Shown: positions 9,591 through 61,480, numbered from the stretch's first letter. The stretch: 64,000 nucleotides of DNA from an uncultured Candidatus Saccharibacteria bacterium (GCA_964364265.1 CAYILA010000004.1:9126-73125); one strand, 5' to 3'. Numbers and translations are program-made. Notes: generated by a model from the sequence alone, not told the origin.

Positions 9591-9603
9591 TAGTTTCCCA
9601 ATC

Positions 9604-9716
9604 TCCTACGAAATTACGAATCAAACGAAATTACTAAACTACTAAATTACGAATATTAAATGCGCTTTTCGTAATTTAGTATTTTTGTTGAATTCGTACT
9701 TTCGTAGGGTTATTAT
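9604..9716. promoter_or_regulatory. PE-3 palindromic leader element (cctacgaaattacgaat ... attcgtactttcgtagg) between rpsO and pnp
   Basis: Large imperfect inverted repeat with inner hairpin actaaattacgaa/ttcgtaatttagt; in the position of the rpsO-pnp intercistronic processing hairpin; family copies at 13905-14012, 38232-38380, 53909-53965. Confidence 0.5.
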
Positions 9717-11925: not shown

Positions 11926-12074
11926 ATATGTTAAAGTGTCTATTGTATTCCAAGCGCATCATTCCACTTCGTGTCATCCCGACCGAAGTGGAGGGATCTT
12001 TTAAAAGATTTCTCGACTCGATAGATTCACTCACTCGAAATGACAAACTAATTAGAAATATAGGAATTACTGTT

Positions 12075-13900: not shown

Positions 13901-13904
13901 AAAA

Positions 13905-14012
13905 TTACCTAACTCTTACCAAATTACAAATATGTCGAAAATACTAAATTACGAAAATACAAATGTTTTAGTAATTTCGTATTTTTGTTTAATTCGTACT
14001 TTCGTAGGGTTT
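13905..14012. promoter_or_regulatory. PE-3 leader element upstream of lepB
   Basis: tactaaattacgaaaatacaaatgttttagtaatttcgta ... attcgtactttcgtagggtt, near-identical to 9665-9716. Confidence 0.45.
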
Positions 14013-14018
14013 GCGTGA

Positions 14019-16512: not shown

Positions 16513-16635
16513 AGTAAAAGTATTAAGTATCCAGTATTAAGTATCCAGTATCAAGGAATGTCATAGACACAATGTATTTTGTGGTTAACCCCCTAATACC
16601 AAATACCTGATACTTGATACTGCACTAAGCGAAGC

Positions 16636-17928
16636 TTAGTGCTTTGCTTCCAGCCAGTTCTTGCCGTAGGCGACCTCCACTTCAAGAGGAACACAAAGCT
16701 TAACCGCCCCTTCCATCACCTCTTTAATCATTTTCGATACCGATTCGGCATCTTCTTCCGGCGCTTCCGCCACCAGTTCGTCATGAACAGTCAGAATCAA
16801 TCTCGGTCGTCGGCCTGCCTCGCCGGTGGGCGGGTCGTCGGTCGTCGGTCGTCGGTTAATTTCTTTATCCAATTCGATCATTGCCAGTTTCAATATCTCC
16901 GCCGCCGTGCCCTGGACCGGCGTATTGATCGCCATTCGCTCTCCGGCATTGGCCGTCTGCCAATTTTCCGATTTCAATTCGGCGATGTTGCGGCGGAAGC
17001 CGAACAGCGTCTCAACATAGCCGTCCTTGTCCGCCTTGGCCCGCATATTTTTGACATACCGGGCGATGCCGGTGTGGACATCGAAATATTTATCGATATA
17101 ATTTTGGGCATCCTGCCGGTTGATTCCCAGCGCCTGTGACAAACCGTATGAGGTCTGGCCGTATAAAACCCCGAAGTTAACTGTTTTGGCCGCCCTGCGT
17201 TGTTCTTTGGTCACCTTGTCGGCCGGGACGCCGAAAATCTCCGATGCTGTTTTCGAGTGAATGTCGACTCCGCTCTCAAACGCCTTCAACATCACCTCGT
17301 CTTGCGCCAGACAGGCCACGATTCTAAGCTCAATCTGCGAATAATCGGCCGAGATCAAAACCATTCTCTCCGGCGCGATAAATGCTTTTCTGATCTCGTC
17401 GCCAAGCTCACCCTTGATCGGAATATTTTGCAGATTGGGATTTTTGGATGTCATTCGGCCGGTCGAAGTTTCCTGGCCGTAAGTGGTGTGAATCCGGCCG
17501 TCTTTAGTTACCAAGGCCGGCAGAGGTTTTAAATATGTCGAGACCAATTTTGAAAGTTCGCGGTATTCCAAAACCGGTTCGATAATTTTGTGTTTGCTTT
17601 TTAATTTAGACAGTTCCGGCGCCGCCGTAGAAATCCCCGACTTTGTTTTTTTAAGGTCAAAAATGGGAAGCTTGAGTTTTTTGAATAAAAGTTCCGCCAT
17701 TTGGCTCGGAGAATTGATATTAAACTTTTCTCCCGCCGCCTTGTATATTTCCTTTTCCAGTTTCGATATTCTGATTTCGAGTCTCCGCTGGAGCTCGCTC
17801 AAAACTTTTCTATCGATTAATATCCCGGCGTTCTCCATGGCGCGCAAAACCGGCTCGACTTGTCTGTCGATCTCTCCCGCACTGATATTCGGGATTTTGA
17901 CGCCCTTTTCACGTAGATGTGACCACAT
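16636..17928 (-). CDS. polA: DNA polymerase I, polymerase domain only
   Basis: Pol A motifs (ISADYSQIELRI, RRAAKTVNFGVLYG, HDELV); carries an in-frame PPTGEAGRRPR insertion from a GC palindrome at 16800-16860. Confidence 0.85.
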   Translation of the reverse strand: MWSHLREKGVKIPNISAGEIDRQVEPVLRAMENAGILIDRKVLSELQRRLEIRISKLEKEIYKAAGEKFNINSPSQMAELLFKKLKLPIFDLKKTKSGISTAAPELSKLKSKHKIIEPVLEYRELSKLVSTYLKPLPALVTKDGRIHTTYGQETSTGRMTSKNPNLQNIPIKGELGDEIRKAFIAPERMVLISADYSQIELRIVACLAQDEVMLKAFESGVDIHSKTASEIFGVPADKVTKEQRRAAKTVNFGVLYGQTSYGLSQALGINRQDAQNYIDKYFDVHTGIARYVKNMRAKADKDGYVETLFGFRRNIAELKSENWQTANAGERMAINTPVQGTAAEILKLAMIELDKEINRRPTTDDPPTGEAGRRPRLILTVHDELVAEAPEEDAESVSKMIKEVMEGAVKLCVPLEVEVAYGKNWLEAKH

Positions 17929-18049
17929 AATTTTAGAATATTGATTTCAGATTGTAGAAGTTAGAATGAGATTAGAGATTAGCAATTAGCAATTAGATTC
18001 TATATTATACATTCATTCTAAAATCTAATATCTATCCTCTAAATTCTAG

Positions 18050-19144
18050 TTATAGCTCCAATCTTAATTGACTATCCTTCTTCTTCTGTTCCTCGGTTAT
18101 TTTCCGTTGTTCTTCCGTCCGCCGGCCGGCGGATCCGTCCTTTCGTCTTTCAGTTTCCTTCGTAAATCTTTCAAGCAACGATTTAAACTGCAATTCCTCA
18201 AACAACTTCCGCAGTTCCCCCCTATCATACTGCCCCCATTTGGCATCTGCAAGAGAAAAATCAATCGGCACATTGCGTTCAATCGTGGCCAGCATTTGGG
18301 ATTGAAATGCCTGATCCTTGTGTTCGATCAACAACCTTAATATGCGAGGCTTTATATCCATTTGCTCGGCAAGCTTATCGATTGCTTCATTGTTCGATTG
18401 TTCGATTGTTAAATCAGCAATTGAGCAATTGAGCAATTGAGCAATCAGCCCATAAAGCTTCTCCAGCGTATCAAATTTAAGAATAAGATCAGTTGCAGTT
18501 TTGGGACCTATTGAAGGAACCCCGGGGATATTGTCCGAGGGATCCCCGGCAAGGGCTTTTAAGTCGACGAAATCCTCCGGATCGAGATTGTAAACCTCTT
18601 TCAAGTGTTTATGATCAAATATCTCCGCCTCCGAAAAGCCGCGCTTTAACATTAAAACTTTGACATGACCGTTTAGAAGTTGATAAACATCCTTGTCGCC
18701 CGAGGCGATGTAAATCATCAATTCTTCCTCTTGACTTTCGCCTTTCGCCTTTCGCCTTTCGCCTTTTAGGCATTTCTCTACTATTGTGCCGAGAATGTCG
18801 TCCGCCTCATATCCCTCTAGAGATAAAACCGGAATCCCGAAGGCCGCAAGCATCTCTTTTACCCGAGGAATCTGATCATAGAGTTCCTGATCGGCTTTAA
18901 CCCGCTTTGCTTTATATTCTTTATATTCGACATGCCGGAATGTCGGGCCGGCCAAATCAAAAGCGGCCGCGATGTAGTCGGGATGAAGTTCTTCGAGCAC
19001 CTTAATCAGCGCCAGAGCAAAACCGTAGGTTACATTAGTTAGTTCGCCCTTTGAATTCGATAAATTCTTAGGCAAAGCATGATAAGCCCGATGGATGATG
19101 GCGTTTGAATCGAGCAGGACTAAAGTTTTCATAACAAGATCCAA
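18050..19144 (-). CDS. 5'-3' exonuclease (Pol I N-terminal FEN-like domain) as a separate ORF
   Basis: 5'-nuclease domain with conserved acidic residues and H3TH; in-frame tandem-repeat insertions (caattgagcaat x3; cgcctttcgccttt x3). Confidence 0.85.
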   Translation of the reverse strand: MDLVMKTLVLLDSNAIIHRAYHALPKNLSNSKGELTNVTYGFALALIKVLEELHPDYIAAAFDLAGPTFRHVEYKEYKAKRVKADQELYDQIPRVKEMLAAFGIPVLSLEGYEADDILGTIVEKCLKGERRKAKGESQEEELMIYIASGDKDVYQLLNGHVKVLMLKRGFSEAEIFDHKHLKEVYNLDPEDFVDLKALAGDPSDNIPGVPSIGPKTATDLILKFDTLEKLYGLIAQLLNCSIADLTIEQSNNEAIDKLAEQMDIKPRILRLLIEHKDQAFQSQMLATIERNVPIDFSLADAKWGQYDRGELRKLFEELQFKSLLERFTKETERRKDGSAGRRTEEQRKITEEQKKKDSQLRLEL

Positions 19145-20570: not shown

Positions 20571-20649
20571 CCGTAAACCACCGTATTTCGTGTTTCTCTC
20601 TGAATTTTGTTCTTTTCCTCGAGCCACAACTCTCCTTATCTGGACAAAA

Positions 20650-20785
20650 TAAATCCTAAGTACTAAATCCGAAATCCTAAACAAATTCCAATGTTCGAAT
20701 TACTAAATCAAAACAACTTTATTTTTGAATATTATTATTATTTTGAATTTTTTTAGGATTTAGAAATTAGAATTTAGAGTTTGTT
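20650..20785. repeat. PE-2 element (aaatcctaa ... tttaggattt family)
   Basis: Shared arms with 22560-22670, 38655-38745, 39336-39428, 58598-58716. Confidence 0.6.
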
Positions 20786-20793
20786 CTTTGATA

Positions 20794-22533: not shown

Positions 22534-22559
22534 ATTGAAATTTCCAGTAAATTCTAAGC

Positions 22560-22670
22560 ACTAAATCCTAAGCTCTAAACAAATTAACAATTATTCAAAT
22601 TACAATAAACAATAAATATTTTGGATTTAATTAGGATTTAGAAATTAGGATTTAGGATTTGTTCACCTGT
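22560..22670. repeat. PE-2 element upstream of dnaX
   Basis: ctaaatcctaagc ... ttaggatttagaaattaggatttaggattt. Confidence 0.6.
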
Positions 22671-22957: not shown

Positions 22958-25375
22958 ATGACAAGAAAAGAGCTGGCGCGAGAAATCGCCCAAAAAAGCG
23001 GACTAAGCTACAACCAGGCCGAAAGTTTGGTTGTCGCTTTAGGCGATGTAATCAGAGAGTGCTTGGCCAAAGGCGACCGAGTCGTCTATTCTAATTTTGG
23101 CACTTTTTACACCGTCCACTACCCCTCAAAAGTGATCAACCACCCCAAATACGGGGCCCAAAAGAAGATAATAATGCTGCCGACCAATGTCGCTAAGTGG
23201 ATGCCCTCGGGAAACATCAAAAGCATGGTCGGTCAAGGCGAAGAAAGGGAGTCTGTGACTGCCCACGGTTTGAAGGGCGTCAAAAAGGCCGAACCGATTT
23301 CAAGCCCGAATCAGGAGTCAAATTTCAGTCAAAATTACTTCCGCAACGACCCGGAAAACTCAAATGATGAAAATAATAATCCCGACCTATCAAATACTGG
23401 CCGGATGACACCGGCATCCGAAGAACAACCAAAAACCAATGCCAATGTTTATGAAGAACTGATGAATGACGGCGGCCGCGAGGAAGCGACCTTTGACGGC
23501 GTAATCCGTCTACATGAGAGAAAACCGTTTTGGAAAAGAATCTTCCAAAAGGATTCCGAAACGACAGCCGACTCGGAGAGCCAGGGAATGGTCGGCTCCG
23601 GCATCTTCAATAAGGAAAACACCGAACTTCCCGATCACAATCCCTCCGCGCAACATCCGCCCGAACAACATACTTCAGCTTTTGCCAACCAACCTCATGA
23701 AGCGAAAGCTTACATCCAGCAACCGGCTTCCGGGCATACCGGGTTTGAATTTAGTCCCAAACCGGTTGATCCAACCGCTACAGCGGAACCAAAAGAACGA
23801 GATATGACTCCGTTCAAAGCGCCGGCCGGCCAGATTACCTATACCGATCTTTCCAGAAAAGTGGTGCCCAAAGAACTTCTCGCCAAAATTCCCGAGAAAA
23901 TCGCCCGCCAGTTTATGGCGGTGCCGGTCGAGGAAACTCCGACCGAGATGATTGTCGGCATGATCGATCCGGAGGATATTGAAGCGCGCGAATTAATAAA
24001 GAAATTAGTCCAAAAGACGGTTGTCCCGAAGCTGGCGACCGAGGAAGATGTCAACCACATTCTGGATCAATATCAGGGGCTGGAGTCCGAGGTCAAAGAG
24101 GCAATCGAGGAGGCGAAAGAAGAAGACGATCTGGTGATCAAGAAATCGGAGAATAGTAAAACCCTCTTTGATATCGCCGCCGACGACGCTCCGGCCGCCC
24201 GAATTGTCGGTTCGCTTCTGAAGCGGGCGATTCGCGATAAGGCCTCTGACATCCACATCGAACCGCTTGAAACCGAGATTCAGGTCCGGTTTCGAATTGA
24301 CGGCGTTTTGCAGAAGAAAATCACTCTGCCCAAGGATATCCTCTCGGCAGTCGTGTCGCGGGTCAAGATTATGTCAAACCTAAAAATCGACGAGCAACGG
24401 CTTCCCCAGGACGGTCGATTTTCAATCCATATGGATGAAAGGAAGGTTGATTTCCGTGTTTCAAGTATGCCGACCGCTTTCGGCGAAAAAGTTGTTATGA
24501 GAATATTGGATAAGATGACCGGTATTCTGACCGTCGAACAGCTCGGTCTGGAGGGCTCCGGCTTGGAGAAATTAAAAAACAATCTGGAGAAATCCCATGG
24601 CATGATTCTGGTGACCGGACCGACCGGTTCAGGCAAAACCACAACACTCTACGCCCTCATCGACCGACTCTTTGCCGAGGGAGTAAATATCGTAACCTTA
24701 GAGGATCCGATCGAATACCAGATTCCGGGTATCAATCAAAGCCAGGTCAATCCCGATATTAAATACACTTTTGCCAACGGCCTGCGCTCCATCGTCCGCC
24801 AGGACCCGGATATCATTATGATTGGCGAAATCCGCGACGGCGAGACGGCCGAGATGGCGGTCCAGTCGGCTCTGACCGGCCACATCGTCCTTTCTACGCT
24901 TCATACGAACGACGCCGCCGGCGCCTCCCCCCGACTGATCGATATGGGAGTCGAGCCGTTCCTGCTAACTTCATCCGCCAATGTGATTATCGGCCAAAGA
25001 TTGGCTCGAAAAATCTGTCCTGATTGTAAAGAACAGGTTACTTTGCCTGTGTCTGAAATTGAAAAGATTAAAGAGATTGTCAATAAAATGCCTGAAAAAG
25101 AGCGGACCGCAGTTTTAAGCAAGCCCCCCGTTTTCTATCACGGCAAGGGATGCAAAAGCTGTAACGATTCCGGCTATACCGGCCGGCTCGGTATCTTTGA
25201 GGCTCTGGAGATGACTGAAAAAGTCAAGGAGTCGATCTTAAAAAAAATATCATCCAGCCAAATCCAGGAACTGGCCATTTCGGAGGGAATGGTCACTATG
25301 ATCCAGGATGGCATAATCAAAGCCCTAAAGGGTATGACCTCAATCGATGAGGTCTGGAGAGTAACCAAGGACTAG
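22958..25375 (+). CDS. pilB: HU/IHF-like DNA-binding domain fused through a ~200-aa disordered linker to a type IV pilus assembly ATPase PilB/GspE
   Basis: Residues 1-92 resemble HU; the C-terminal part has a T2SSE N-domain, Walker A GPTGSGKTTT and a tetracysteine motif; one uninterrupted 805-aa frame. Confidence 0.8.
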   Translation: MTRKELAREIAQKSGLSYNQAESLVVALGDVIRECLAKGDRVVYSNFGTFYTVHYPSKVINHPKYGAQKKIIMLPTNVAKWMPSGNIKSMVGQGEERESVTAHGLKGVKKAEPISSPNQESNFSQNYFRNDPENSNDENNNPDLSNTGRMTPASEEQPKTNANVYEELMNDGGREEATFDGVIRLHERKPFWKRIFQKDSETTADSESQGMVGSGIFNKENTELPDHNPSAQHPPEQHTSAFANQPHEAKAYIQQPASGHTGFEFSPKPVDPTATAEPKERDMTPFKAPAGQITYTDLSRKVVPKELLAKIPEKIARQFMAVPVEETPTEMIVGMIDPEDIEARELIKKLVQKTVVPKLATEEDVNHILDQYQGLESEVKEAIEEAKEEDDLVIKKSENSKTLFDIAADDAPAARIVGSLLKRAIRDKASDIHIEPLETEIQVRFRIDGVLQKKITLPKDILSAVVSRVKIMSNLKIDEQRLPQDGRFSIHMDERKVDFRVSSMPTAFGEKVVMRILDKMTGILTVEQLGLEGSGLEKLKNNLEKSHGMILVTGPTGSGKTTTLYALIDRLFAEGVNIVTLEDPIEYQIPGINQSQVNPDIKYTFANGLRSIVRQDPDIIMIGEIRDGETAEMAVQSALTGHIVLSTLHTNDAAGASPRLIDMGVEPFLLTSSANVIIGQRLARKICPDCKEQVTLPVSEIEKIKEIVNKMPEKERTAVLSKPPVFYHGKGCKSCNDSGYTGRLGIFEALEMTEKVKESILKKISSSQIQELAISEGMVTMIQDGIIKALKGMTSIDEVWRVTKD

Positions 25376-26591: not shown

Positions 26592-26657
26592 ATGTCATCC
26601 CGAGCGAGTATAACGAGCCGAGGGATCCCTCCGTTCGCTCCGCTCAGTCGGGATGAC
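26592..26657. repeat. PE-1 palindromic element
   Basis: gtcatcccgagcgag ... ctcagtcgggatgacac. Confidence 0.65.
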
Positions 26658-26748
26658 ACTAATGTATTACTTTAAGGACTTTATAGACTTTCGACTATAA
26701 TTTCATTAATGTTATAATTACCAATAGAAATGAATTGCTAGGAGGGTA

Positions 26749-31454: not shown

Positions 31455-31528
31455 TCCGAGATCGTCTAGCGGCAGGACAGCGGATTCTGGCTCCGCCAAC
31501 CTAGGTTCGAATCCTAGTCTCGGAACCA
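31455..31528 (+). tRNA. tRNA-Gln (anticodon CTG), CCA encoded
   Basis: Acceptor tccgaga/tctcgga with U1:A72, anticodon stem gcgga/tccgc with loop ttCTGgc, T-arm ctagg-ttcgaat-cctag. Confidence 0.85.
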
Positions 31529-31542
31529 TACATTCTTTACTT

Positions 31543-31661
31543 TCTAATATCCTTTGATGCAGTCTAGCGGTCCGCCTGCCCTCCGGGCAGAGCGAGATCT
31601 CGCCCGAAGGGCGGACAGGACAGCGGATTCTGGCTCCGCCAACCTAGGTTCGAATCCTAGT
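31543..31661 (+). pseudogene. tRNA-Gln duplicate with a 43-nt palindromic insertion in the D-loop and a degenerate 5' acceptor strand
   Basis: From gtctagcgg onward identical to tRNA-Gln (31455-31528) except for the insert tccgcctgccctccgggcagagcgagatctcgcccgaagggcgg at 31561-31603; 5' strand tttgatg pairs poorly. Confidence 0.4.
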
Positions 31662-31698
31662 CTCGGAACCAAAAAAAACGAATACCCTCTCGGTAGTC
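31661..31698 (+). terminator. Rho-independent terminator after the tRNA cluster
   Basis: aaaaaaaacgaatacc-ctctc-ggtagtcgtttttt. Confidence 0.75.
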
Positions 31699-32445: not shown

Positions 32446-32871
32446 ATGAATAATACTGATAAAAATGATATGACCGTTTCCGAGCTTGCCCGGATAATGG
32501 ACAAAAAGTTTGACGGATTGACCGAGATTATGATCTCCGGTTTTGACCGTTTGGAAAAACGATCGGACGATATAGAGAGCGATGTAGAGATCATCAAATC
32601 CGATGTCGGAGTACTCAAGTCTGATGTTGGCACGCTCAAGTCTGATGTTGGCACGCTCAAGTCTGATGTTGGCACGCTCAAGTCTGATGTTGGCACGCTC
32701 AAGTCTAGTATGATAGATGTTCAATTAACTCAGAGAAAACATACTGAAACGCTTGCCGAACATTCAAAAATCCTTCACCGGATAGAAGGCGATGTAGAGA
32801 TGCTGATCGACCGCGACCTCAATCATGAAACGCGTATCGGAAGATTGGAAAAAATCGCCAAACCGATTTAA
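32446..32871 (+). CDS. Coiled-coil protein with 4 tandem 7-aa repeats (KSDVGTL) from a 21-nt DNA repeat
   Basis: caagtctgatgttggcacgct x4 at 32618-32701; heptad periodicity. Confidence 0.5.
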   Translation: MNNTDKNDMTVSELARIMDKKFDGLTEIMISGFDRLEKRSDDIESDVEIIKSDVGVLKSDVGTLKSDVGTLKSDVGTLKSDVGTLKSSMIDVQLTQRKHTETLAEHSKILHRIEGDVEMLIDRDLNHETRIGRLEKIAKPI

Positions 32872-36176: not shown

Positions 36177-36223
36177 AGTTTAACAATATCAAATTATTCT
36201 ATCCCTGTCATCAAACCCCCCTT

Positions 36224-36304
36224 CTGTCATTCCGACCGAAGTGGAGGGATCTCTTTGATTCTATCACAAAGGGATTCTCACGTCGCTTCGCTCCTCAGAA
36301 TGAC
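36224..36304. repeat. PE-1 palindromic element
   Basis: ctgtcattccgaccgaagtggagggatc ... cagaatgacgc. Confidence 0.65.
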
Positions 36305-38229: not shown

Positions 38230-38231
38230 AA

Positions 38232-38380
38232 ATTTCCTAACTCCTACGAAATTACGAATCTACCGAAAGTACGAATCTTACAAATACTGCAATAGGATCT
38301 TAATCATTCGTAATATTTGTAATTTCGAGCAATTCGTAGATTGGTAGTAGCGAATCTACGAAGTAGATTCGACGTGAACA
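38232..38380. promoter_or_regulatory. PE-3 leader element upstream of rplS
   Basis: cctaactcctacgaaattacgaat ... gaatctacgaagtagattcg. Confidence 0.45.
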
Positions 38381-38637: not shown

Positions 38638-38654
38638 TACAAACTCCGTTTGAA

Positions 38655-38745
38655 AATTCTAATATCGAATATCTAAATCCGAAACAATTTTCAAAATTCG
38701 AATTTCTAATTTGTTTCGATATTCGGATTTCGAGTTTCGTATTTA
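38655..38745. repeat. PE-2 element; also encodes the C-terminus (ETRNPNIETN) of the methyltransferase ORF
   Basis: atctaaatccgaaacaattttcaaaattcgaatttctaatttgtttcgatattcggatttcg. Confidence 0.6.
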
Positions 38746-40250
38746 AGAAATACAATCTCTCTTTTTACGACTTGATAATCTCTGCCATAAATCAATGGCG
38801 GACGCTCTTCAATATATCCTAAACTTTTAATTTCGTCAACACTCTCCCAATACAAACTGTAGCGTTTATTTTCCGTTGTCTCGATGAGTGGAAATACGAT
38901 ACAGACCGCCTCAATCTTTTTATCCAACTTTTTGATATTTTTCAAGAAATTGATGTAAGTATCCTTCACTTTCCGGTACTCACCTGCGGCGGCGCTCTGT
39001 GAAGGCATAAACTTCTTTGGCTCACCCAAGTAAGGTTCCGTAACCAGAACCATATTAGAATCTAGATTTTTGCCATGCCTGCCGGCAGGCAGGATTTTAG
39101 AATTTAGAATATTAATAAGTTCAGATGAAGTTGCATCTTCCTTAAAAAATCCTAAATTCGTACTTCTAGAATCTAGCATCTTCTCTTTTAGCCATTCCAA
39201 ATTCTTTTTTGTGTCTGATACCGCCTTCTCACTGATATCAGAGCCGATTACATCGCACCACAGCATCGCGGCTTCCATTAAAATATTACCGGAACCGCAG
39301 AAGGGATCTACCACCGCACAACGGTGGAAATCCAAATCCCTAATATCTAAATCCGAAACAATTTTTGAATTTTCAAAATTCGAATTTTTGATTTCTTTAG
39401 GATTTAGGATTTCGGATTTCGGATTTGCGTATGCGAGTGCAATGTTAACCATTGCACGAGCTAATTTATGTGGCATCATTCCCGAATATTTGTCAAAAGC
39501 CGGTTTTTCGTAGTCTCGCTCTGACCATTCTTCCGCATCGCTCAAACCGACGAGAACCCCCGCTGCCACCCCCGGTGTGGCAGCGGGGGTGTCGAACAAT
39601 CCTATCTCGATGCCTTTCCCGACAAGGTCGTTTTTAAGGGAAACGATGGATGAAAGAGCGTCCTCTTGACGAGATTCAATAAATCTTGCGGGGTGAGCGC
39701 CTTTTAACAAACGTTTTACCTCCAACCCCAAAGTATATATTTCACTCTTTTTAGCTGCGCCGAAATATTGGGAGATTCCAAAATTAATCTTACCGGTCCG
39801 CCCCATCTTCTCACGCTTAATTATGTCAGCTATTGCTATAGCCAATCCATGACTTGTCATCCCGACCGTTCCTCCTGTCATCCCGACCGAAGTGGAGGGA
39901 TCTTTTGATAGGAGACGTCGTCCCGAGCTTGCCGAGGGATTCCTCGGCTTCTTTTCATTTCGCTCGGAATGACAATTAATGAGACGGAATATTTTTATAG
40001 TGCCGCCAAGTATTTCGGAGAGCTTCGCCACTTCATCAGCTTCAATATTTTCTATGTTGATGACGGCAACATTTCCCGTTACTATGGGTTTATCAAAACA
40101 AAAACCAAGACGGCCCAAAGTCGCCTCCAACTCGACGAGCGCAATCTCTTTTTCTCGTCCCAAAACAAAAGCATATGTTCTATAGGTTTGGCTATTGTCC
40201 ATAATCGTATAATCATACCAGAAACACTTTATCCTGTCACGAGTAATCAA
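38706..40250 (-). CDS. Putative THUMP-type RNA (guanine-N2/adenine-N6) methyltransferase carrying four in-frame repeat-element insertions
   Basis: SAM motif VVDPFCGSGN; PE-1 x2 (39855-39974), PE-2 (39336-39428), GC palindrome (39068-39100) and a terminal PE-2 all read through in frame. Confidence 0.55.
   Translation of the reverse strand: MITRDRIKCFWYDYTIMDNSQTYRTYAFVLGREKEIALVELEATLGRLGFCFDKPIVTGNVAVINIENIEADEVAKLSEILGGTIKIFRLINCHSERNEKKPRNPSASSGRRLLSKDPSTSVGMTGGTVGMTSHGLAIAIADIIKREKMGRTGKINFGISQYFGAAKKSEIYTLGLEVKRLLKGAHPARFIESRQEDALSSIVSLKNDLVGKGIEIGLFDTPAATPGVAAGVLVGLSDAEEWSERDYEKPAFDKYSGMMPHKLARAMVNIALAYANPKSEILNPKEIKNSNFENSKIVSDLDIRDLDFHRCAVVDPFCGSGNILMEAAMLWCDVIGSDISEKAVSDTKKNLEWLKEKMLDSRSTNLGFFKEDATSSELINILNSKILPAGRHGKNLDSNMVLVTEPYLGEPKKFMPSQSAAAGEYRKVKDTYINFLKNIKKLDKKIEAVCIVFPLIETTENKRYSLYWESVDEIKSLGYIEERPPLIYGRDYQVVKREIVFLKYETRNPNIETN
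39336..39428. repeat. PE-2 element inside the methyltransferase CDS, in frame
   Basis: Encodes NPKSEILNPKEIKNSNFENSKIVSDL. Confidence 0.7.
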
Positions 40251-40395
40251 TAGAGACTAATTACAAATTTCTAATTCCTCATCAAATCTCAATTGTAAAA
40301 TTAAATAATTGGTGTTTGGTCATTATTTAGAAATTAGAAATTCTGATTTAGAAATTTAAGGGATCCCTCCGCTTCGGTCGGGATGACAGCAATTT

Positions 40396-43300
40396 ATGCC
40401 AGATGAATCTAAAACTGAAGAGTTCAAGCCTTCTCCCTTCGTCCACCTCCATGTGCACAGTCATTATTCGATGCTGGACGGTATGGGCAAGATCCCCGAT
40501 CTGGTCGCTAAGGCCAAAGCCGACGGTCAAACCGCCCTTGCTATTACCGACCACGGCGTCATGCATGGGGCGATTGAGTTCTATGAAGAATGTGAAAAAG
40601 AGGGCATTTTGCCCCTGATCGGGGTCGAGATATATATGGCGCCCCGGACACTCAAGGACAAAACCCCCCGGATCGACGCCAACCCCTATCACCTCGTTCT
40701 GATCGCCAAGAACGAAGAGGGTTATAAGAATCTATTAAAAATCACGACAATCGCCCATCTGGAGGGATATTATTACAAACCGAGAATCGATAAGGCCACG
40801 CTCAAGAAACACTCCGCCGGTTTGATTGCCCTTTCCGCCTGTTTGCAGGGCGAAATCCCGCGCAAAGCGCTTGAAAATATGGACAGAGCAAGAGGAGCAA
40901 TCTTGGAATACAAGGAGATATTTCCAAACGGCGATTTTTATCTCGAAGTCCAAAAACACCCCTCGATCCAGATTCAAGACCGGGTCAATAAATTGATATT
41001 ACAACTTGCCAAAGAAACTGGTCTCAAAGTAGTCGCCACCTGCGACACCCATTATGTCAATCCGGACGACGCCATTGCCCAAGACGCTCTCATCTGCCTC
41101 CAGACCGGCCGTATTCTCTCCGATACCAACCGTATGTCGATGAAGGGGGATGATTACTCCTTAAAGACCACCGCCGAGATGATGGCCAATTTCCCCGATA
41201 ATCCCGAGACAATCACTAACACCCAAGAGATCGCGGAGAAGTGCAACCTTCACCTCGAGCTCGGCGGAATGATCTTTCCGGTCTTTCCTGTCCCGGAGAA
41301 CTATAGCATTGAATCTTATTTTATGGAGAAGGCCTATCTCGGGCTGAACTGGCGCTACGGAAGCGAGAAGATCAATAAAGATGATCTATATGCCGCTATT
41401 GATGTCATTCCCACCTCCTCTCCTGTCATCCCGACCGAAGCGGAGGGATCCCTCGACTCGCAAACCACACTCTCTCGGGATGACATTTTTAATGTTCAAT
41501 TCAAGAAAATAACGGCAGATATATTAAAAATATCACCTGAAATCTGGGAACGAGCCGAATACGAACTGGGCGTGATTAATAAAATGGGCTATCAGGGCTA
41601 TTTCTTAATTGTGGCCGACTATGTCAACTGGGCCAAGGAGCAGGGAATAGCCGTCGGTCCGGGCCGCGGCTCGGCCGCCGGTTCAATCATCGCTTTCGGC
41701 ATGAATATCACCAATCTTGACCCGTTGCAGTTCGATCTCCTCTTTGAACGATTTTTGAACCCCGATCGAATAAGCATGCCGGATGTTGATATGGATTTTG
41801 CCGATTCCAGACGGGGTGAGGTAATTGAATATGTTTGTTCCAAATATGGCCGCGATCATGTCGCCCAGATTATCACCTTTGGCACCATGGCTGCCAGGAT
41901 GGCGATACGCGATGTCGGGCGGGTTTTGGGCATGAGCTATGCCGAGGTTGACCTGATAGCCAAGCTAATTCCCCTTGGCATGCATCTGCAGGAGTCGATC
42001 GATTTCGTCTCCGAGCTCAAGGATCTCTACTCGGCTAATGCTCAAGTCAAGGAGTGTCTCGATATCGCCAAGAAGCTGGAGGGTGTTGTCCGCCACGCCT
42101 CCGTTCACGCCGCAGGCGTGGTCATTTCAAAGGAAAGATTGACCGAATATGTCCCCCTCCAGGAAGCTGCCAAAGGTGATATTTCAGTCGTAACCCAGTA
42201 CTCGATGAACCCGATCGAACACCTCGGCCTTTTGAAAATGGACTTTCTCGGCCTTTCCAACCTCACCATCATCCAAAATGCTCTTCGTATCATTCGCAAA
42301 ACTAAAAATACCGAGCTCGATATTGATAGTATCCCCTTGGATGATAAAGAAAGTTACAAGCTCCTCTCCCGCGCCGAAACGATCGGCATCTTCCAATTGG
42401 AATCGGAGGGCATGCGCCGCTACCTGAAAGAACTCAAACCGAATGTCTTTGAAGATATTATCGCTATGGTCGCTCTCTATCGTCCCGGCCCGATGCAATG
42501 GATTGACTCCTTCATCGCCCGCAAACACGGCAAAGAGCCGATCAGCTACGCTCACGAAAAAGCCAAGGCCTCGCTTGAAAATACCTACGGAATCATTGTC
42601 TATCAGGAACAGTTGATGCAGATGGCCAAGGATATGGCCAATTTCAGCGGCGGCCAGGCCGACACTCTCCGCAAAGCGACCGGCAAGAAAATCAAGGAAT
42701 TGATGGTTAAGGTCGGCAAAGAGTTTGTCGAAGGTTGTATTAATAACGAGATTGATAAGAAAATCGCCGAAGAGCTTTACCACGCTATGCAGGATTTCGC
42801 CCAATACTCCTTCAACAAATCCCATGCCGCCTGCTACGCCCTAATCTCTTATCAGACCGCCTATCTTAAAGCCCACTATCCCTCCGAATTTATGGCTTCT
42901 TTAATGACCTCGAACCAGGGCGATCTCGATAAGCTGGCGATTGACATTTCCGAATGCGAGCGGATGGACATTAAAGTCCTCCCCCCTTCGGTTAATGAAT
43001 CCTTCGTCGAGTTCGGTGTGGTCAAGGAAACCGGTAATGTCCGCTTCGGCCTTTCGGCTATCAAGAATGTCGGTGCGGCCGTGGCCGAAGAGATCGTCGA
43101 GGAGAGGAAGAATAATGGAATCTATGCCGACCTCAAAAGTTTGATAACGCGGCTTGATGCCAAAGTAATAAACAAGAAATCACTCGAAGCCCTGATTATG
43201 GCCGGCGCTTTGGATGACCTGGGGGAGAGAGCCGAATTGATATACAATCTGGAACGGATTTTGAGCTTTGCCAATTCTTTTTCAAAAAACAAGACCTCGG

Positions 43301-46283: not shown

Positions 46284-46336
46284 AATTTCTAATGACTAAT
46301 TTCTAATCAAACCCCAATGAACAAATAACCACTCAT

Positions 46337-46420
46337 CCATCTTGTCATTCCGGCCTAGAAGCTTGAGAGCCGGAATCTTTCTCAAGATTCCCGATCAGGT
46401 CGGGAATGACATCACTTGAT
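46337..46420. repeat. PE-1 palindromic element
   Basis: cttgtcattccggcctag ... ggtcgggaatgacatc. Confidence 0.65.
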
Positions 46421-46497
46421 TGAATTGCTAATTTGGTAATTGGTTGTTGATTAGTAATTAGAAATTCTTAATTCGACATTTGCAATGTTTAGTTCTA

Positions 46498-52270: not shown

Positions 52271-53521
52271 TTAAATTTTCCCTCGTAACTTGGCGGCGGA
52301 GAGGATGCGTTTCATAGCTATAATGTAGGCCGCGGTGCGGTAGTCGGTTTTTGATTCCTTCGCCTGATCGGAAACCCGCTTCCAGGCGTCTTTCATCATT
52401 AGTTCAAGCTTCTTCTTCAGGTACTCCGGATCAAGGATATTTCCGGTCCGATTCTGCGCCCACTCAAAGTAGGAGACAACCACGCCTCCGGCGTTGGCTA
52501 GGATATCAGGAACGATCGCCACACCTTTTTCAAACAATATCTTGTCCGCTTCAGGCGTAATTGGCCCGTTTGCAAGTTCAATTATGTACTTGGCTTTAAT
52601 CTTGCCGGCGTTCTCCTTCGTAATCTGATTTTCAAGCGCCGCCAATATCAGGACATCAACATCCAATTCCAATAATTCATCATTGGAAATCTGCCGGCCC
52701 ATTGGACATTCACAGCTTTTGACGGTACCCTCTTTTTCCTTCAAAGCCGTTAGTTTATCAAAGCAGATCTTTTTTTGGCAGTTCATCCCCCCTCGGCTGT
52801 CCGAAACGCCGACTATCCGGTATCCGGCATCAAGGAGCATCTTGGCAAAGTTATGCCCGGCGTTGCCGAACCCTTGAATTGCGATTTTTAAGTCCTTTTT
52901 ATTCGTAAGATCCCTCGACTTCGCTCGGGATGACAGGGAGGAGATAAGCTCCTCGAATATTAGATAGGCACCGCGCGCAGTTGAATCCGATCGCAAAGCG
53001 ATTCCGCCAAGGTCGATTGGCTTGCCGGTTATCATCCCCGGCTCATGATGCCCGACTTTCTTCTCGTATTCATCCAAAATCCAAGCCATAATCTGGCCGT
53101 CGGTATAAACATCTGGCGCCGGTATATCGGTGTCCTGTCCCAAGACCTTGTAGAAGGCGCGAGAATAGCTTCTGGAAACTTTTTCTAGGTATTTTTGGCT
53201 CTTGCCCTTCGGATTAAATTTCACTCCGCCTTTTGCGCCGCCGTACGGGAGACCAAGCAAAGAATTTTTCATACTCATCCAAAATGAGAGCGATTTGACC
53301 TCGTCTTCCGATACTTCGGGGTGAAATCTGATCCCGCCCTTGCCCGGTCCCAAATCATTGTTGTGAACAATTCGCCAACTCGGCAGCTTATCGCCTTCAA
53401 TATTCAATATCGATTTGCTGACCTGATGGTGCTTTAATAAATATTTGATCTCGTTGTCATTAAATCCGGCAATATCTTTAATTTTATCTAATCTATCAAT
53501 AATCGAGTTGAATGTGGACAT
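52271..53521 (-). CDS. gdhA: Glutamate dehydrogenase (Glu/Leu/Phe/Val dehydrogenase family)
   Basis: GGIRFHP ... GGAKGG catalytic region and NAD(P)-binding Rossmann motif GFGNAG; in-frame PE-1 half-insertion (LSSRAKSRDL). Confidence 0.9.
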   Translation of the reverse strand: MSTFNSIIDRLDKIKDIAGFNDNEIKYLLKHHQVSKSILNIEGDKLPSWRIVHNNDLGPGKGGIRFHPEVSEDEVKSLSFWMSMKNSLLGLPYGGAKGGVKFNPKGKSQKYLEKVSRSYSRAFYKVLGQDTDIPAPDVYTDGQIMAWILDEYEKKVGHHEPGMITGKPIDLGGIALRSDSTARGAYLIFEELISSLSSRAKSRDLTNKKDLKIAIQGFGNAGHNFAKMLLDAGYRIVGVSDSRGGMNCQKKICFDKLTALKEKEGTVKSCECPMGRQISNDELLELDVDVLILAALENQITKENAGKIKAKYIIELANGPITPEADKILFEKGVAIVPDILANAGGVVVSYFEWAQNRTGNILDPEYLKKKLELMMKDAWKRVSDQAKESKTDYRTAAYIIAMKRILSAAKLRGKI

Positions 53522-57430: not shown

Positions 57431-60076
57431 TTATTTCGGCCACTTTGCGATCATAATCGATTCCGATAGTTTCGGATAAATCTGGCGCAAATCCTGCCAG
57501 ACAGCTTCGGTTACAAACGGCATGAATGGGTGAAGCATAATTAGAGTTTCTGAAAGAACTTTCATTAAGATTTTCTTCGTATTTGTGATCACCTCAATAG
57601 ATTCATTGTCATTCGGTTTTCGGTTTTCGGTTACGAGACCCGTTTCGGTTACGTCGGACGTTTTACGTGACCGCTCGACGATACGGACTTCGCCTGCCTC
57701 GCCGGTAGGCGGGTTACCGTTACCGCATGACGGTTGTAGCTGTGCCTTCGATGCTTCGATGTAAACATCGGCAAAGCTGTGCCAGAAGTACTCGTACAGC
57801 TTCTCACCCGCAAGCGAAAATTTATATTCATCGAGTAAGCGTGTTACTTCATTTTTGATCTCTTCATGCTCTTTCAAGATTGCTTTGTCGGCATCTGTCA
57901 ACCCGGGGACAGTCCCCGAGGGGGACAGTCCCCTTGCAATCCTTGATTCTCCAATGTCACCGCTCTGTAAGTCACCGTCTGAAACTCGCAGGATCACATA
58001 GCGCGAGGCGTTCCATATTTTATTCGAGAAATTTCGATATCCCTTGATTTTCGCCTCGCCAATGGGAATATCCTGGCCGGGCGTTGAGCCCACCACAAGT
58101 GCCATACGCATGGCGTCCGTACCGTATTTGGGTATTAAATCAAGAGGATCAAGGACATTGCCCAAAGATTTGCTCATCTTGCGGTTCTGCTCATCGCGCA
58201 CTAAACCATGGAGATAAACAGTCTCAAAGGGCGCTTTACCTGTAAATTCCAGTCCAAACATTATCATTCTAGCTACCCAGAAGAAGAGGATGTCGTAGCC
58301 GGTCTCCATCACACTCGTCGGATAGAAATATTGATAATCGCAATTAGTTATTCCCGACGCATAGGAGAATGGATGACTATTGCAATTTTCTTCGCTGTCA
58401 TCCTCGGGCTTGACCCGGGGATCTTTCGAAAGATTCCCGATCTGGTCGGGAATGACATCGCTGGACTGAGGCCAGCCAAGAGTTGAGAACGGCCAAAGAG
58501 CAGAGGAGAACCAGGTATCAAGCACATCCTCGTCCTGAACCCAGCCATCGCCTTCCGGCGGTTCAACGCCGACATAGATCTCGCTGTCGCTCGACAAATC
58601 CGAATCTCTAATATCTAAACCTACCTGTCCGGTAGGCAGGTCCGAAACAATTTTTGAATTTTCAAAATTCGAATTTCTAATTTCTTTAGGATTTAGGATT
58701 TCGGATTTCGGATTTCCTGCCTGTCTGTACCAAACCGGTATCTGATGTCCCCACCAGAGCTGACGCGAAACACACCAGTCGCGGATATTATCCATCCACT
58801 GGTAATACACTTTATCGAACCTGTTTGGAATTATTTTAATCTCACCGCTCTCAACCGCTTCTTTCGCCTTGTCGGCCAACGGCCGCATCTTTACAAACCA
58901 CTGTTTGGATGGAATCGGCTCAATCGATCCCCCACACCTATAACACTTGGATAAGTTATTCGTAATCTCCTGCTCCTTTTCAAGCAGTCCCTGGCTCTTC
59001 AAGTATTCAACCAATTTCTCGCGTGCCTCCGACACTTTTATACCGGTATATTTCCCGGCTTCATCCGTCATCTTGCCGTATTCATCAATAACTTTGATGA
59101 CAGGCAAACCGTTATCCTCGGCCATTTTCCAATCGGCGAATGAGTGCGCCGGCGTCAAACCGACCGCGCCTGTTCCGAATTCCTTATCTATCGATCGATT
59201 GGCGATAATTTTAATAGTCCTTTTGACTCCATCAATATCAACTTCATATGATTTACCCACAAATTCCTGATATCGCCGGTCATCCGGGTTTACGGCCACG
59301 CCGGTGTCGCCCAATTTTGTTTCGGGACGGGTGGTGGCGATGGTTACGGGAAAATTTTTATCGTATTTGAAGTAATATAATTTAGCGTTTTGTTCCTCGT
59401 ATTCCACCTCATCATCGGAAATTGCCGTCTGGCAACGCGAACACCAATTCACTACCCGCAACCCTCGATAGATGAGGCCTTTTTCGTATAGCTGGACGAA
59501 AGCTTCGCGCACGGCGCGGTTTAAGCCCTCATCCAATGTAAAGCGCTCTCTTGACCAATCGCAAGACGCTCCGAGGCGCTTTATCTGCTCGGTGATGATA
59601 CCTCCGTACCGCTCCTTCCACTCCCAAACTTTTTCGACAAATTTCTCCCGCCCAAGATCGTGCCTATTGATCCCCTGTTTCCGTAATTCTTTATCAACCA
59701 CTGTTTGAGTGGCAATACCGGCATGATCCGTGCCTGGCAGCCACAGAGTCGGCTCGCCTTTCAAACGATGATATCGAGTCAAAATATCTTCCAAGGTGAC
59801 AAACATGGCGTGACCCATATGCAATTTACCTGTAACATTCGGCGGCGGCATTGAAATCACAAAGGGCTTGCCGTCTTTGTCTCGATCATAGCTGAAGGAA
59901 CAACCACCAACCTTGTCATCCTCGGGCTTGACCCGGGGATCTTTTGCAACAAGATTCCCGCTTTCGCGGGAATGACAATAAGAAGTCTCCGGTTTAAAAT
60001 AACCTTTTTCTTCCCATTGTTTATAGAGTTCGGTTTCAAAATTTTGCGGTTCATATGCCTTTGGTATGTTTTTCAT
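57431..60076 (-). CDS. valS: Valyl-tRNA synthetase with three in-frame repeat-element insertions
   Basis: HIGH-class motif PPPNVTGKLHMGHA and KMSKS; PE-1 at 59914-59977 and 58405-58470; PE-2 with a nested GC palindrome at 58598-58716. Confidence 0.95.
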   Translation of the reverse strand: MKNIPKAYEPQNFETELYKQWEEKGYFKPETSYCHSRESGNLVAKDPRVKPEDDKVGGCSFSYDRDKDGKPFVISMPPPNVTGKLHMGHAMFVTLEDILTRYHRLKGEPTLWLPGTDHAGIATQTVVDKELRKQGINRHDLGREKFVEKVWEWKERYGGIITEQIKRLGASCDWSRERFTLDEGLNRAVREAFVQLYEKGLIYRGLRVVNWCSRCQTAISDDEVEYEEQNAKLYYFKYDKNFPVTIATTRPETKLGDTGVAVNPDDRRYQEFVGKSYEVDIDGVKRTIKIIANRSIDKEFGTGAVGLTPAHSFADWKMAEDNGLPVIKVIDEYGKMTDEAGKYTGIKVSEAREKLVEYLKSQGLLEKEQEITNNLSKCYRCGGSIEPIPSKQWFVKMRPLADKAKEAVESGEIKIIPNRFDKVYYQWMDNIRDWCVSRQLWWGHQIPVWYRQAGNPKSEILNPKEIRNSNFENSKIVSDLPTGQVGLDIRDSDLSSDSEIYVGVEPPEGDGWVQDEDVLDTWFSSALWPFSTLGWPQSSDVIPDQIGNLSKDPRVKPEDDSEENCNSHPFSYASGITNCDYQYFYPTSVMETGYDILFFWVARMIMFGLEFTGKAPFETVYLHGLVRDEQNRKMSKSLGNVLDPLDLIPKYGTDAMRMALVVGSTPGQDIPIGEAKIKGYRNFSNKIWNASRYVILRVSDGDLQSGDIGESRIARGLSPSGTVPGLTDADKAILKEHEEIKNEVTRLLDEYKFSLAGEKLYEYFWHSFADVYIEASKAQLQPSCGNGNPPTGEAGEVRIVERSRKTSDVTETGLVTENRKPNDNESIEVITNTKKILMKVLSETLIMLHPFMPFVTEAVWQDLRQIYPKLSESIMIAKWPK
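58598..58716. repeat. PE-2 element inside valS, in frame, with a nested GC palindrome
   Basis: Encodes NPKSEILNPKEIRNSNFENSKIVSDL then PTGQVG. Confidence 0.7.
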
Positions 60077-60178
60077 AAGATTAGTATTATGTATTATGTA
60101 TTATGTAAAACACTATCATATTAAATAATGATTTTCTATATCTTGCTTGATACTTACTACATTAATACTAAATACCGG

Positions 60179-61480
60179 CTAAAGCTCGGCGTTTGAATCA
60201 ATATTTATCTCGTTCCACTTGGCAATATCGTCTCTTTTGATATGGTAATAGGCCGCGATTCCAATCATGGCGGCATTGTCGCCGCAGAGGGAAAGCGGGG
60301 GAATCAAGAGTCTTTTTCCTGATTGTTTGAAAACCGCCTCATCAAGCGTTTTACGCAATTTCTCGTTTGCCGACACACCGCCGGCCAATACAAAGGTATT
60401 TGGCTTCAATTTATCATACGCCTTCATACTTTTAGACACCAGGACATCGACGACCGCGTCTTCAAAAGCGGCCGAGATCTCTTGTTTTTTATCCTCATCT
60501 AAATATTTTGAATCAATCACTTCCCGAAGCACCGCTGTTTTAAGACCGGAGAAGGAGAAATTAAAGTTGTTCTCCTTTAATAATGGCCGTGGGAAAATGA
60601 TTGTGCCTGAAATGTTTTTCTGTCTGAATATCATCGCTTTCTTAGATATTTTCGGTCCGCCCGGATAGCCCAATTTCAGCAGCTTTGCCACTTTATCAAA
60701 TGCCTCGCCGGCGGCATCATCAAGAGTTTCCCCGATTACTTGGTACTTTCCCTCACTTTTTGCGTATATCAAAGATGTATGTCCACCCGATACCACCAAT
60801 GCAAGTAGCGGATATTGATAATTTTCCATACATTCATATATTTGCCTTTCGACTTTTGCCTTTTGTCTTTCGGCACAAAGTGCCGAAAAGATGTGTCCCT
60901 CAATGTGATTTATCGGAATAACCGGTAAATCTTTCGCGTAGGCGAGTGACTTTGCCGCATTGAAACCGACTAATAATGATCCGATCAGCCCCGGACCGTT
61001 TGTTACAGCAATGTGGGTTAAATCACTAAATAAATCCATGGCAGACGGCTTACGGTTCACGGTAACGATGCCCGTATCGGTCGCCGTTATTCGTTTTCCG
61101 GCCTGCCTGTCGGCAGACATGGCCGTATACCGCTCACCGCTAGACGATACGGGTTTCGTAACCCTTAAACGATTACCGAGTTCCTGTGTTTCTCTGGCTG
61201 TTTCTAGGGCTTCTTGTATCACCGGCATTATTGCCTCCATATGAGCTCTGCTGGCCACTTCCGGTACAACCCCGCCGGTTTTGGCATGCAGATCGATTTG
61301 TGAGGATACTATGTTCGATAGAATAACCGGACGATTGCCTACCGACGACAGACTACCGCTTGATTTTCGTTCTTGTCCTGTTGTCTGTCGTCCGTCGACT
61401 GTTGTCTCTGTAATCACGGCCGCCGCCGTTTCATCGCAAGAACTTTCGATCGCAAGAATTTTTATTGTTTGTTCCTTCAT
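60179..61480 (-). CDS. tsaD: tRNA N6-adenosine threonylcarbamoyltransferase TsaD (Kae1/Gcp family) with low-complexity insertions
   Basis: ASKHD/ACTIN fold with metal-binding His pair (HIEGH); about 90 extra residues versus typical TsaD, including a palindrome-derived segment at 61090-61120. Confidence 0.9.
   Translation of the reverse strand: MKEQTIKILAIESSCDETAAAVITETTVDGRQTTGQERKSSGSLSSVGNRPVILSNIVSSQIDLHAKTGGVVPEVASRAHMEAIMPVIQEALETARETQELGNRLRVTKPVSSSGERYTAMSADRQAGKRITATDTGIVTVNRKPSAMDLFSDLTHIAVTNGPGLIGSLLVGFNAAKSLAYAKDLPVIPINHIEGHIFSALCAERQKAKVERQIYECMENYQYPLLALVVSGGHTSLIYAKSEGKYQVIGETLDDAAGEAFDKVAKLLKLGYPGGPKISKKAMIFRQKNISGTIIFPRPLLKENNFNFSFSGLKTAVLREVIDSKYLDEDKKQEISAAFEDAVVDVLVSKSMKAYDKLKPNTFVLAGGVSANEKLRKTLDEAVFKQSGKRLLIPPLSLCGDNAAMIGIAAYYHIKRDDIAKWNEINIDSNAEL

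Follow-up and report, generated by a model that had tools for sequence, protein, structure and literature searches.

The window analysed here is a 64,000-nucleotide stretch of DNA (GCA_964364265.1, CAYILA010000004.1:9126-73125) from an uncultured Candidatus Saccharibacteria bacterium, a groundwater member of the Patescibacteria or candidate phyla radiation (CPR). This 64-kb window holds six members of a dispersed, AT-rich family of palindromic repeats. Two of them lie inside genes, one in the gene of a predicted methyltransferase and one in valS, the gene of valyl-tRNA synthetase (ValRS); one lies across the 3' end of the methyltransferase gene, and three are intergenic. A preliminary description of this DNA, made from the sequence alone, had claimed that the two unrelated enzymes share a peptide derived from the repeat. 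It named the family PE-2, a label of its own coinage that corresponds to no known family. The host genes and element copies are listed below, with E-values from a profile search of the window.

38706-40202, minus strand: host gene 1, a Trm11-like (THUMP-type fold) S-adenosylmethionine (SAM)-dependent RNA methyltransferase of predicted function, within an open reading frame (ORF) of 514 aa at 38706-40250
39326-39428, minus strand: element copy in the methyltransferase gene (profile match 39317-39431, E 6e-27)
39327-39425, minus strand: 99-nt core of that copy, encoding NPKSEILNPKEIKNSNFENSKIVSDLDIRDLDF
38647-38751, minus strand: third element copy, across the methyltransferase 3' end, with its remainder in the spacer before rpmA (E 7e-23)
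57431-60076, minus strand: host gene 2, valS, 881 aa vs a 717-720 aa core in related CPR genomes
58594-58716, minus strand: element copy in valS (profile match 58590-58723, E 6e-24)
58620-58640, no strand assigned: 21-nt GC-rich mini-palindrome CCTACCTGTCCGGTAGGCAGG, nested in the valS copy only, which adds 7 codons (PTGQVGL)
22542-22670, plus strand: diverged intergenic member with T-type arms and a different core, in the divergent spacer upstream of dnaX (E 4e-17)
20639-20790, plus strand: diverged intergenic member between dnaX and dnaB, with two partial profile matches and a longer core (E 7e-10)
40252-40366, plus strand: the family's weakest member, in the divergent spacer that separates the methyltransferase gene from dnaE (E 3e-7)

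One palindromic repeat in two enzyme genes

The window was searched with a profile hidden Markov model (HMM) that was built only from family members in other genomes. The profile recovered the five sites of the preliminary description and a sixth at 40252-40366, with E-values from 6e-27 to 3e-7, and it found zero matches in ten block-shuffled windows. The copy in the methyltransferase gene had been placed at 39336-39428; it is present there, but the element begins about 8-10 nt before 39336. The intergenic copies at 20650 and 22560 are family members by profile, as described, but they are only 60-65% identical, with arms that are alike and a different core. The copies at 20650, 22560 and 40250 all have their arms in common with the family and differ in their cores. 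The predicted RNA folds of all window copies are better than those of shuffled sequence, with z-scores from -1.8 to -4.5.

The two genic copies were compared by pairwise alignment, a check that the preliminary description had named beforehand, and the same element was found in both. They align over about 100 nt, and their near-identity is interrupted by a 21-nt block that is found in the valS copy only. With this nested block removed, the two copies agree at 95/99 positions (96%) of their common 99-nt core. In the window, exact element pieces of 26 and 27 nt are found at only two sites, which are the methyltransferase and valS copies, where shuffles expect 0.00. Both copies lie within long minus-strand ORFs, whose translations give NPKSEILNPKEI(K/R)NSNFENSKIVSDL in each, and so the repeat does lie inside both genes and both copies are read in one same frame. 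The shared frame is less striking than had been implied, because only a single stop-free frame per strand runs through the methyltransferase copy. The frame in use encodes a hydrophilic peptide with a grand average of hydropathy (GRAVY) of -0.89 and 70% polar or charged residues, and the other open frame encodes a hydrophobic, Phe/Leu/Ile-rich peptide (GRAVY +0.24). The canonical length of 99 nt equals 33 codons and the nested 21 nt equal 7 codons; the valS copy accordingly encodes NPKSEILNPKEIRNSNFENSKIVSDL-PTGQVGL-DIRDSDL. The nested block is one of a family of 21-nt mini-palindromes resembling CCTGCCTCGCCGGTGGGCGGG, read as PTGEAG or PTGQVG, whose three copies in the window are all genic.

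16814-16834: mini-palindrome copy in the polA ORF
57693-57713: mini-palindrome copy in valS
58620-58640: mini-palindrome copy in valS, nested in the element

The methyltransferase ORF (38706-40250) has weak Pfam methyltransferase matches and the SAM motif I, DPFCGSG, and its translation contains NPKSEILNPKEIKNSNFENSKIVSDL. Its true start is likely the ATG at 40202, which is Met17 of the 514-aa ORF, judging from ortholog N-termini. An AlphaFold2 (AF2) model of the protein, with a predicted template modelling score (pTM) of 0.87, has its best structural matches in Trm11, Trm14 and RlmL/K. The earlier name of THUMP-type methyltransferase is therefore right at the fold level, and a Trm11-fold enzyme and ValRS are indeed unrelated hosts. 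The element encodes a loop between the helix ...KLARAMVNIAL and motif I, which maps to the loop before motif I of archaeal Trm11. This loop is minimal in 17/69 homologs, with 8-13 residues between NIAL and DPFCGSG, and other homologs have low-complexity inserts of all lengths, up to 51 residues. The nearest ortholog among 5.8 billion proteins is 49% identical. The element segment has a predicted local distance difference test score (pLDDT) of 48-52, and the low-confidence residues of the model are 81-112, 261-290 (the element), about 371-380 and the C-terminal tail. As had been claimed, the third element copy supplies this C-terminus: the stop codon at 38706-38708 lies inside the copy at 38647-38751, which encodes the last ~11 residues (...YETRNPNIETN). 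Methyltransferase orthologs without such a tail stop near ...VKREIVLL.

A further region of the same gene, 39093-39173 (...DSRSTNLGFFKED...), has weak profile matches (E ~0.4) and a 75% inverted match to the arm at 22632-22663. Other methyltransferase orthologs have element-like inserts at this site, after NLEWL. From its sequence, this region may be a decayed, older copy of the element.

The window ValRS contains four repeat-derived inserts. The element copy lies in a variable loop after WWGHQIPVWY, between residues 418 and 448 of Thermus thermophilus ValRS, and this site is the unaligned segment 419-447 of that structure (1GAX). The mapping of insert sites onto structures that had been proposed was thus carried out for both enzymes, and it placed both inserts in loops. 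In 28/88 ValRS homologs the loop is minimal, with 18 residues between PVWY and QDEDVLDTWF, and other homologs have low-complexity inserts, related or unrelated, of all lengths up to 111 residues. The nearest orthologs are 62-65% identical, and in the five closest relatives the site is empty, nearly empty, or filled with a different element. The AF2 model (pTM 0.82) gives the element residues 455-496 a pLDDT of 31-53; low confidence is also given to residues 41-57, 541-572 and 784-820. The valS copy directly adjoins an 'RQAG' remnant of another repeat (GACAGGCAGG). The gene also holds two copies of a further repeat, at 58396-58469 and 59914-59977, so that ...KDPRVKPEDD... occurs twice, once in an N-terminal insert and once in an insert after STLGWP, which are the low-pLDDT loops 41-57 and 541-572. 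A related intergenic copy of the KDPRVKPEDD repeat lies at 46375-46423.

The element family in other genomes

A 20-nt piece of the core was used to scan 185,579 species genomes and the Joint Genome Institute (JGI) metagenomes. In about 45 of the 114 matches the seed is flanked on either side by the element architecture. Their sources are Microgenomates, Levy-, Davies-, Roizman-, Lipton-, Zambryskii- and Saccharibacteria, along with some metagenome-assembled genomes (MAGs) that are otherwise labelled. An exact 47-nt pattern had no matches among genome contigs, being too strict. Each arm of the element consists of four tandem heptamers, and the modal length is 99 nt. The consensus is AAATYC-GAAGCAC-GAAATCC-GAAATCC-GAAAC, an AT-rich core, and GTTTC-GGATTTC-GATATTC-GGATTTC-GAATTT. 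Its symmetry is broken in a conserved way by GAAGCAC on one arm and GATATTC on the other. Each element is either wholly 'G-type' (…CCG/CGG…) or wholly 'T-type' (…CCT/AGG…). The two types reflect coordinated compensatory change, and RNAalifold finds GC<->UA covariation at 5/21 consensus pairs. G-type elements have about two open frames on average, whereas T-type elements have 0, because TAA or TAG recurs every 7 nt and closes all three frames.

Among the scan matches, in-frame hosts include UvrB, LepA, TsaD, LigA, YchF and a GT1 glycosyltransferase, with Pfam matches on both sides of the insert. The peptide N(P/S)K(S/H)E...NSNFENSK(I/L)VSD(L/F)DIR... recurs in the methyltransferase, ValRS, UvrB, RNase HII and TsaD. 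The UvrB, methyltransferase and ValRS copies are 95-97% identical over 99 nt; the UvrB copy probably comes from the same population as the window, because it was found in the same sample at similar coverage (8x vs 7x). An exhaustive phmmer search with the peptide found NSKHEIRSPKQIQNSNFENSKLVSDFDIRISDL in the RNase HII of another genome, where the DNA is 81% identical to the window copy. This search gave only three matches, a 33-aa query being weak against as many as 1.8 billion proteins, and a word-indexed protein search with the 43-aa valS peptide gave none. The contig of one ValRS homolog (P0126), L033 from a related CPR population, carries the family at the same ValRS loop and twice in the adjacent TsaD. 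At one of these two TsaD sites the window ortholog holds another insert, and at the other almost none. The window TsaD (60179-61480, 433 aa) has at residues ~95-150 its own insert of ~50 residues (…RETQELGNRLRVTKPVSSSGERYTAMSADRQAGKRITATDTGIVTVNRKP…), where the L033 ortholog has the AT-rich element. By sequence comparison, different repeats have used the same TsaD loop.

Roughly a quarter to a third of the sampled copies are genic, which is far below the ~86% expected from coding density and still substantial. Ten further copies, which were not picked by the seed but lie on seed-selected contigs, are intergenic in 10/10 cases.

Full or half copies were also seen on viral-classified IMG/VR contigs (L139 9813-9932, L141 5024-5192, L146 2459-2627 and L144 3658-3776). 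These contigs could be a route of spread between CPR lineages, or they could be misclassified CPR contigs. Clear members were present on MAGs labelled as non-CPR: L008, L024, L027 and L029 (Gammaproteobacteria), L018 (Omnitrophota), and L016 and L021 (Planctomycetota/Pirellulales). Either these contigs are mis-binned or the range of the element is wider than the CPR.

Origin and fate of the genic copies

The methyltransferase and valS segments are 96% alike, while the closest orthologs of the two enzymes are only 49% and 62-65% identical, and this likeness is therefore not the result of ordinary descent. The comparisons support the claim that the shared peptide is the product of a dispersed DNA repeat and not a conserved domain. 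The conserved-domain reading was ruled out by the empty sites in orthologs, the intergenic copies and the low pLDDT.

The genic copies were likely produced by a process like that of the Rickettsia palindromic elements (RPEs), in which copies between genes occasionally land in coding sequence and a filter decides which of them persist. This reading builds on direct observations: there is a repeat family that lies in frame in many enzymes, is missing from many orthologs, avoids stops and sits in loops. The normal site of the element would be the intergenic spacer, in this genome and in many CPR lineages, and the hairpin-forming repeat would be copied to new places, occasionally into genes. A genic copy would persist on four conditions: the host frame is preserved (99 nt = 33 codons); the frame in use is free of stops, for which only G-type units qualify; the encoded peptide is hydrophilic and rich in N, K, S, E and D; and the copy falls in a surface loop that tolerates a change of length. 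The outcome would be that unrelated housekeeping enzymes share one translated, probably unstructured loop of 33 residues. The element itself seems to be neutral or nearly neutral 'selfish' DNA, and the near-identical copies suggest recent copying.

Several points weigh against an RPE-like process or limit the evidence for it. Target-site duplications are not significant (flank repeat 2.19 nt vs 1.81 +/- 0.25 permuted, with 44/500 permutations reaching the observed value), and the genic copies have none. A Pfam scan of 42 window ORFs found no transposase domain. The search for empty sites that had been proposed found a minimal loop in many homologs but no true pre-insertion allele, the nearest methyltransferase in the databases being 49% identical. 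Copies of the T type are genic in 0/10 cases and copies of the G type in 11/21 (Fisher p 0.005), but a few of these genic calls are unverified ORFs and the contrast is weaker with Pfam-verified hosts only. In the AF2 models of both hosts, essentially all segments with a pLDDT below ~50-60 are repeat-derived inserts, and these low values may partly reflect empty alignment columns and not disorder. That the mature enzymes carry the peptide is something we infer from the translated genes. Finally, the same family sits at the same loop in orthologs that are 43-62% identical (P0013, P0005 and P0006 for the methyltransferase, P0126 for ValRS). The data therefore allow other readings than recent independent insertion: old inserts that have been homogenised, or targeted re-insertion, fit too.

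Some explanations would do away with the translated repeat altogether or give it a different meaning. Short dispersed repeats are a classic source of misassembly in low-coverage (7-8x) metagenomes, and the repeat could have been collapsed or mis-joined to make a chimera. Yet the same conserved gene runs on in frame on either side of each copy, the genes with their inserts are present in separate assemblies of the replicate samples Hain_H51_01um R1 and R2 and on one NCBI MAG contig, and analogous inserts occur in hundreds of independently assembled orthologs. The replicate assemblies exclude a one-off chimera, which settles a doubt that the preliminary description had raised, and assembly error of any kind is scarcely credible here. 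It seems very improbable that the mature protein lacks the element as a result of intron-like RNA splicing, translational bypass of the hairpin or protein splicing. A stable hairpin is predicted in the mRNA, and insertions and introns are known in CPR rRNA and tRNA genes, according to PMC9297842 and bioRxiv 10.1101/2025.07.03.662931. However, the only Rfam matches in the window are 4 tRNAs, with no intron ribozyme and no Rfam family for the element, and a ribozyme or an intein would need far more than 99 nt. All genic copies are in the host frame and free of stops, and T-type elements, which have stops, are never genic. A removed sequence would escape such a constraint on frame and stops, and removal is disfavoured for this reason; constraints on frame, stops and length would follow from translation of the element, and they speak against its removal from the RNA. 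The peptide might also be a functional module, such as a binding or localisation motif, that selection has recruited into several enzymes. It does recur at the same loops, and between distant genomes it is roughly as well conserved as its host proteins: the RNase HII peptide (P0243) agrees with it at 69%, and the P0013 loop agrees with the window loop at ~48% (hand count) where the whole methyltransferase agrees at 43%. But identical DNA lies in non-coding spacers, compensatory changes in the arms account for the conservation at the level of DNA or hairpin, many orthologs are without the peptide, the segment has low predicted order, and in valS a nested 21-nt insertion is tolerated in the middle of the peptide. 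A recruited module is for these reasons quite improbable.

Two other explanations concern the way in which the copies came to be where they are. The loop inserts may be old and inherited with the genes, and their near-identity would then come from gene conversion (concerted evolution) or from homology-driven replacement of remnants. This is possible, if somewhat doubtful. It is favoured by inserts at the same loops in orthologs, as in the P0013 methyltransferase, which has NSNLENSKIVSDFEISASNL, and the P0126 ValRS, which has AGNPKS...DIRASDF. Likeness is also higher within a genome (96% for window ValRS vs methyltransferase, 87% for L033 ValRS vs L033 TsaD) than at the same site across genomes (73-75% for window ValRS vs L033 ValRS). 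The valS copy sits beside the GACAGGCAGG remnant, and loops of every intermediate length occur, as birth and decay would predict. On the other side, the five closest ValRS relatives are patchy at the site, which fits repeated gain and loss as well. The sole tract of clustered substitutions that was found does not come from conversion between copies. In the related CPR population, L033 differs from L034/L035 at 16 positions over 7.8 kb, and 14 of these fall within 61 nt in tsaD (L033 8705-8765). This cluster covers a genic element copy's right arm together with the tsaD codons next to it, and in those codons the changes are synonymous. Since the tract extends into tsaD codons that are unique, it represents an allele segment imported from elsewhere, and since one of its ends lies in the element, the repeats may be recombination break points. 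The loops are either hot spots that have been hit repeatedly, possibly by way of earlier repeat remnants, or sites of old inserts homogenised by gene conversion. It is rather unlikely, as a last alternative, that the hairpin is an actively maintained, CPR-wide module, in which GAAGCAC and GATATTC are recognised by a putative hairpin-specific transposase or recombinase, or by an intercistronic RNA-processing nuclease, that repeatedly targets the same loops or remnants. If true, the element would generate and homogenise protein surface loops throughout the lineage, which goes beyond occasional selfish DNA.

Related systems and the wider window

The closest known systems are the RPEs (Ogata et al. 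2000 Science, 2002 Genome Res), as summarised in PMC10969869 and PMC1166351. Both they and the CPR element are short, multi-copy palindromic repeats that lie between genes and in frame inside unrelated housekeeping genes, encode a conserved peptide in a fixed frame at sites compatible with the fold, and occur in host-dependent bacteria with small genomes; no transposase is known for either. All four features of the RPE functional class are found here, namely a dispersed palindrome, in-frame genic copies, a conserved peptide and fold-compatible sites (with predicted structures). The CPR element differs in its unrelated superphylum, with no sequence relation expected, in its length (~99 nt vs ~100-150 bp), and in its arms, which are built of tandem heptamers with coordinated G/T variants and two conserved asymmetric units. 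It also occurs in many lineages and not in one genus, its copies repeatedly occupy the same loops across orthologs, and a second repeat can nest inside it. Because its host belongs to the Patescibacteria, the element is no RPE in the literal sense.

[quoted passage not shown] The CPR element resembles MITEs such as Correia, ERIC, BOX and RUP in being small, in having many copies and in its arms of 28-33 nt, which are like terminal inverted repeats. It differs in having no demonstrable target-site duplication, in having no parent insertion sequence (IS) or transposase identified in the window scans, and in being a hairpin throughout and not two inverted-repeat ends around unrelated DNA. Membership of the MITEs was rejected on the target-site duplications.

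Repetitive extragenic palindromes (REPs) are 20-40 nt long and essentially always extragenic, and their imperfect stems are recognised as hairpins by Y1 transposases. The CPR element is like REPs and bacterial interspersed mosaic elements (BIMEs) with their REP-associated tyrosine transposases (RAYTs, IS200/IS605-like) in being a palindrome with conserved stem imperfections. By analogy, recognition of hairpins by a Y1 transposase would be a plausible model for the copying of an imperfect hairpin. The element does not belong to the REP/RAYT systems by its size (~99 nt) and genic location, and there is no RAYT-like gene or Y1-transposase match in the window.

The ValRS insert also recalls the lineage-specific inserts of aminoacyl-tRNA synthetases, as its site varies in length and holds 29 unrelated residues in T. 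thermophilus. Such inserts of core enzymes differ from the present case, in which the DNA source can be identified and is common to spacers and unrelated enzymes. An intrinsic terminator was rejected as well: the stems are AT-rich, there is no T-tail, the terminator-like sites lie outside the elements, and two members are in divergent spacers, where none is needed. Consensus scans for promoters and terminators gave one weak -35/-10-like match in the copy at 22542-22670 and zero terminator-like sites in any copy. A self-splicing intron or intein was rejected on the Rfam result of tRNAs only, the length of 99 nt and the constraint on frame and stops.

The element has company in this genome. Nearly every intergenic spacer in the window is an AT-rich palindrome of tandem 7-8-nt units, for example at 1933-2021, 9591-9716, 13901-14018, 16513-16635, 17929-18049, 38230-38355, 46284-46497 and 60077-60178. 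The units differ between spacers (TACGAAAT, AGTATTA, GCAATTGA, AGAAATT and others), and each is mirrored by its complement on the other arm. The studied element is one sequence subfamily of this larger class of palindromic spacers. A second, GC-rich repeat family (TGTCATCCCGACCGAAGTGGAGGGATC) lies both between genes and in frame within genes. It reads KDPSTSVGMT in the methyltransferase, at the low-pLDDT model residues 81-112, and VIPTEAEGSL in DnaE.

39855-39909: GC-rich repeat, genic, methyltransferase
41403-41453: GC-rich repeat, genic, dnaE
52907-52937: GC-rich repeat, genic, glutamate dehydrogenase ORF
11951-12005, 36204-36259, 40355-40389 and 26593-26658: GC-rich repeat, intergenic

With its palindromic spacers and other genic repeat families around it, the finding is one clear instance of a genome-wide habit.

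Four further features of the window were noted. The ORF at 22958-25375, a type IV pilus ATPase (PilB/T2SSE), starts with a complete HU-type Bac_DNA_binding domain (residues 1-91); this ORF either fuses the two in an unusual way or runs through two separate genes. The polymerase domain and the 5'-3' exonuclease of DNA polymerase I are encoded by separate genes (16636-17928 and 18050-19144), with a palindromic spacer between them. The 56-nt 3' part (31473-31528) of the tRNA at 31455-31525 is repeated exactly 143 nt downstream (31616-31671) with no second full tRNA, and may be an integration scar. An ORF of 141 aa without a Pfam match contains an in-frame 21-nt tandem repeat of ~6 copies at 32581-32706.

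A literature search, with subscription journals outside its reach, found no CPR description of such elements. Palindromic repeats that lie in frame within essential genes have so far been treated as a peculiarity of Rickettsia. The same process is now seen in unrelated small-genome, host-dependent bacteria and in many core enzymes, including ValRS, the Trm11-like methyltransferase, UvrB, RNase HII, TsaD, LepA, LigA and YchF. Much of the extra length and low-complexity content of CPR proteins, so far unexplained, is accounted for in this way, as in the ValRS of 881 aa vs 717-720 aa. This is a practical warning for the annotation, alignment, phylogenomics and structure prediction of CPR proteins. 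It is also a large natural experiment on which protein loops tolerate an insertion of 33 residues, and it raises the question of what it is that copies this conserved, imperfect hairpin and maintains it across a superphylum.

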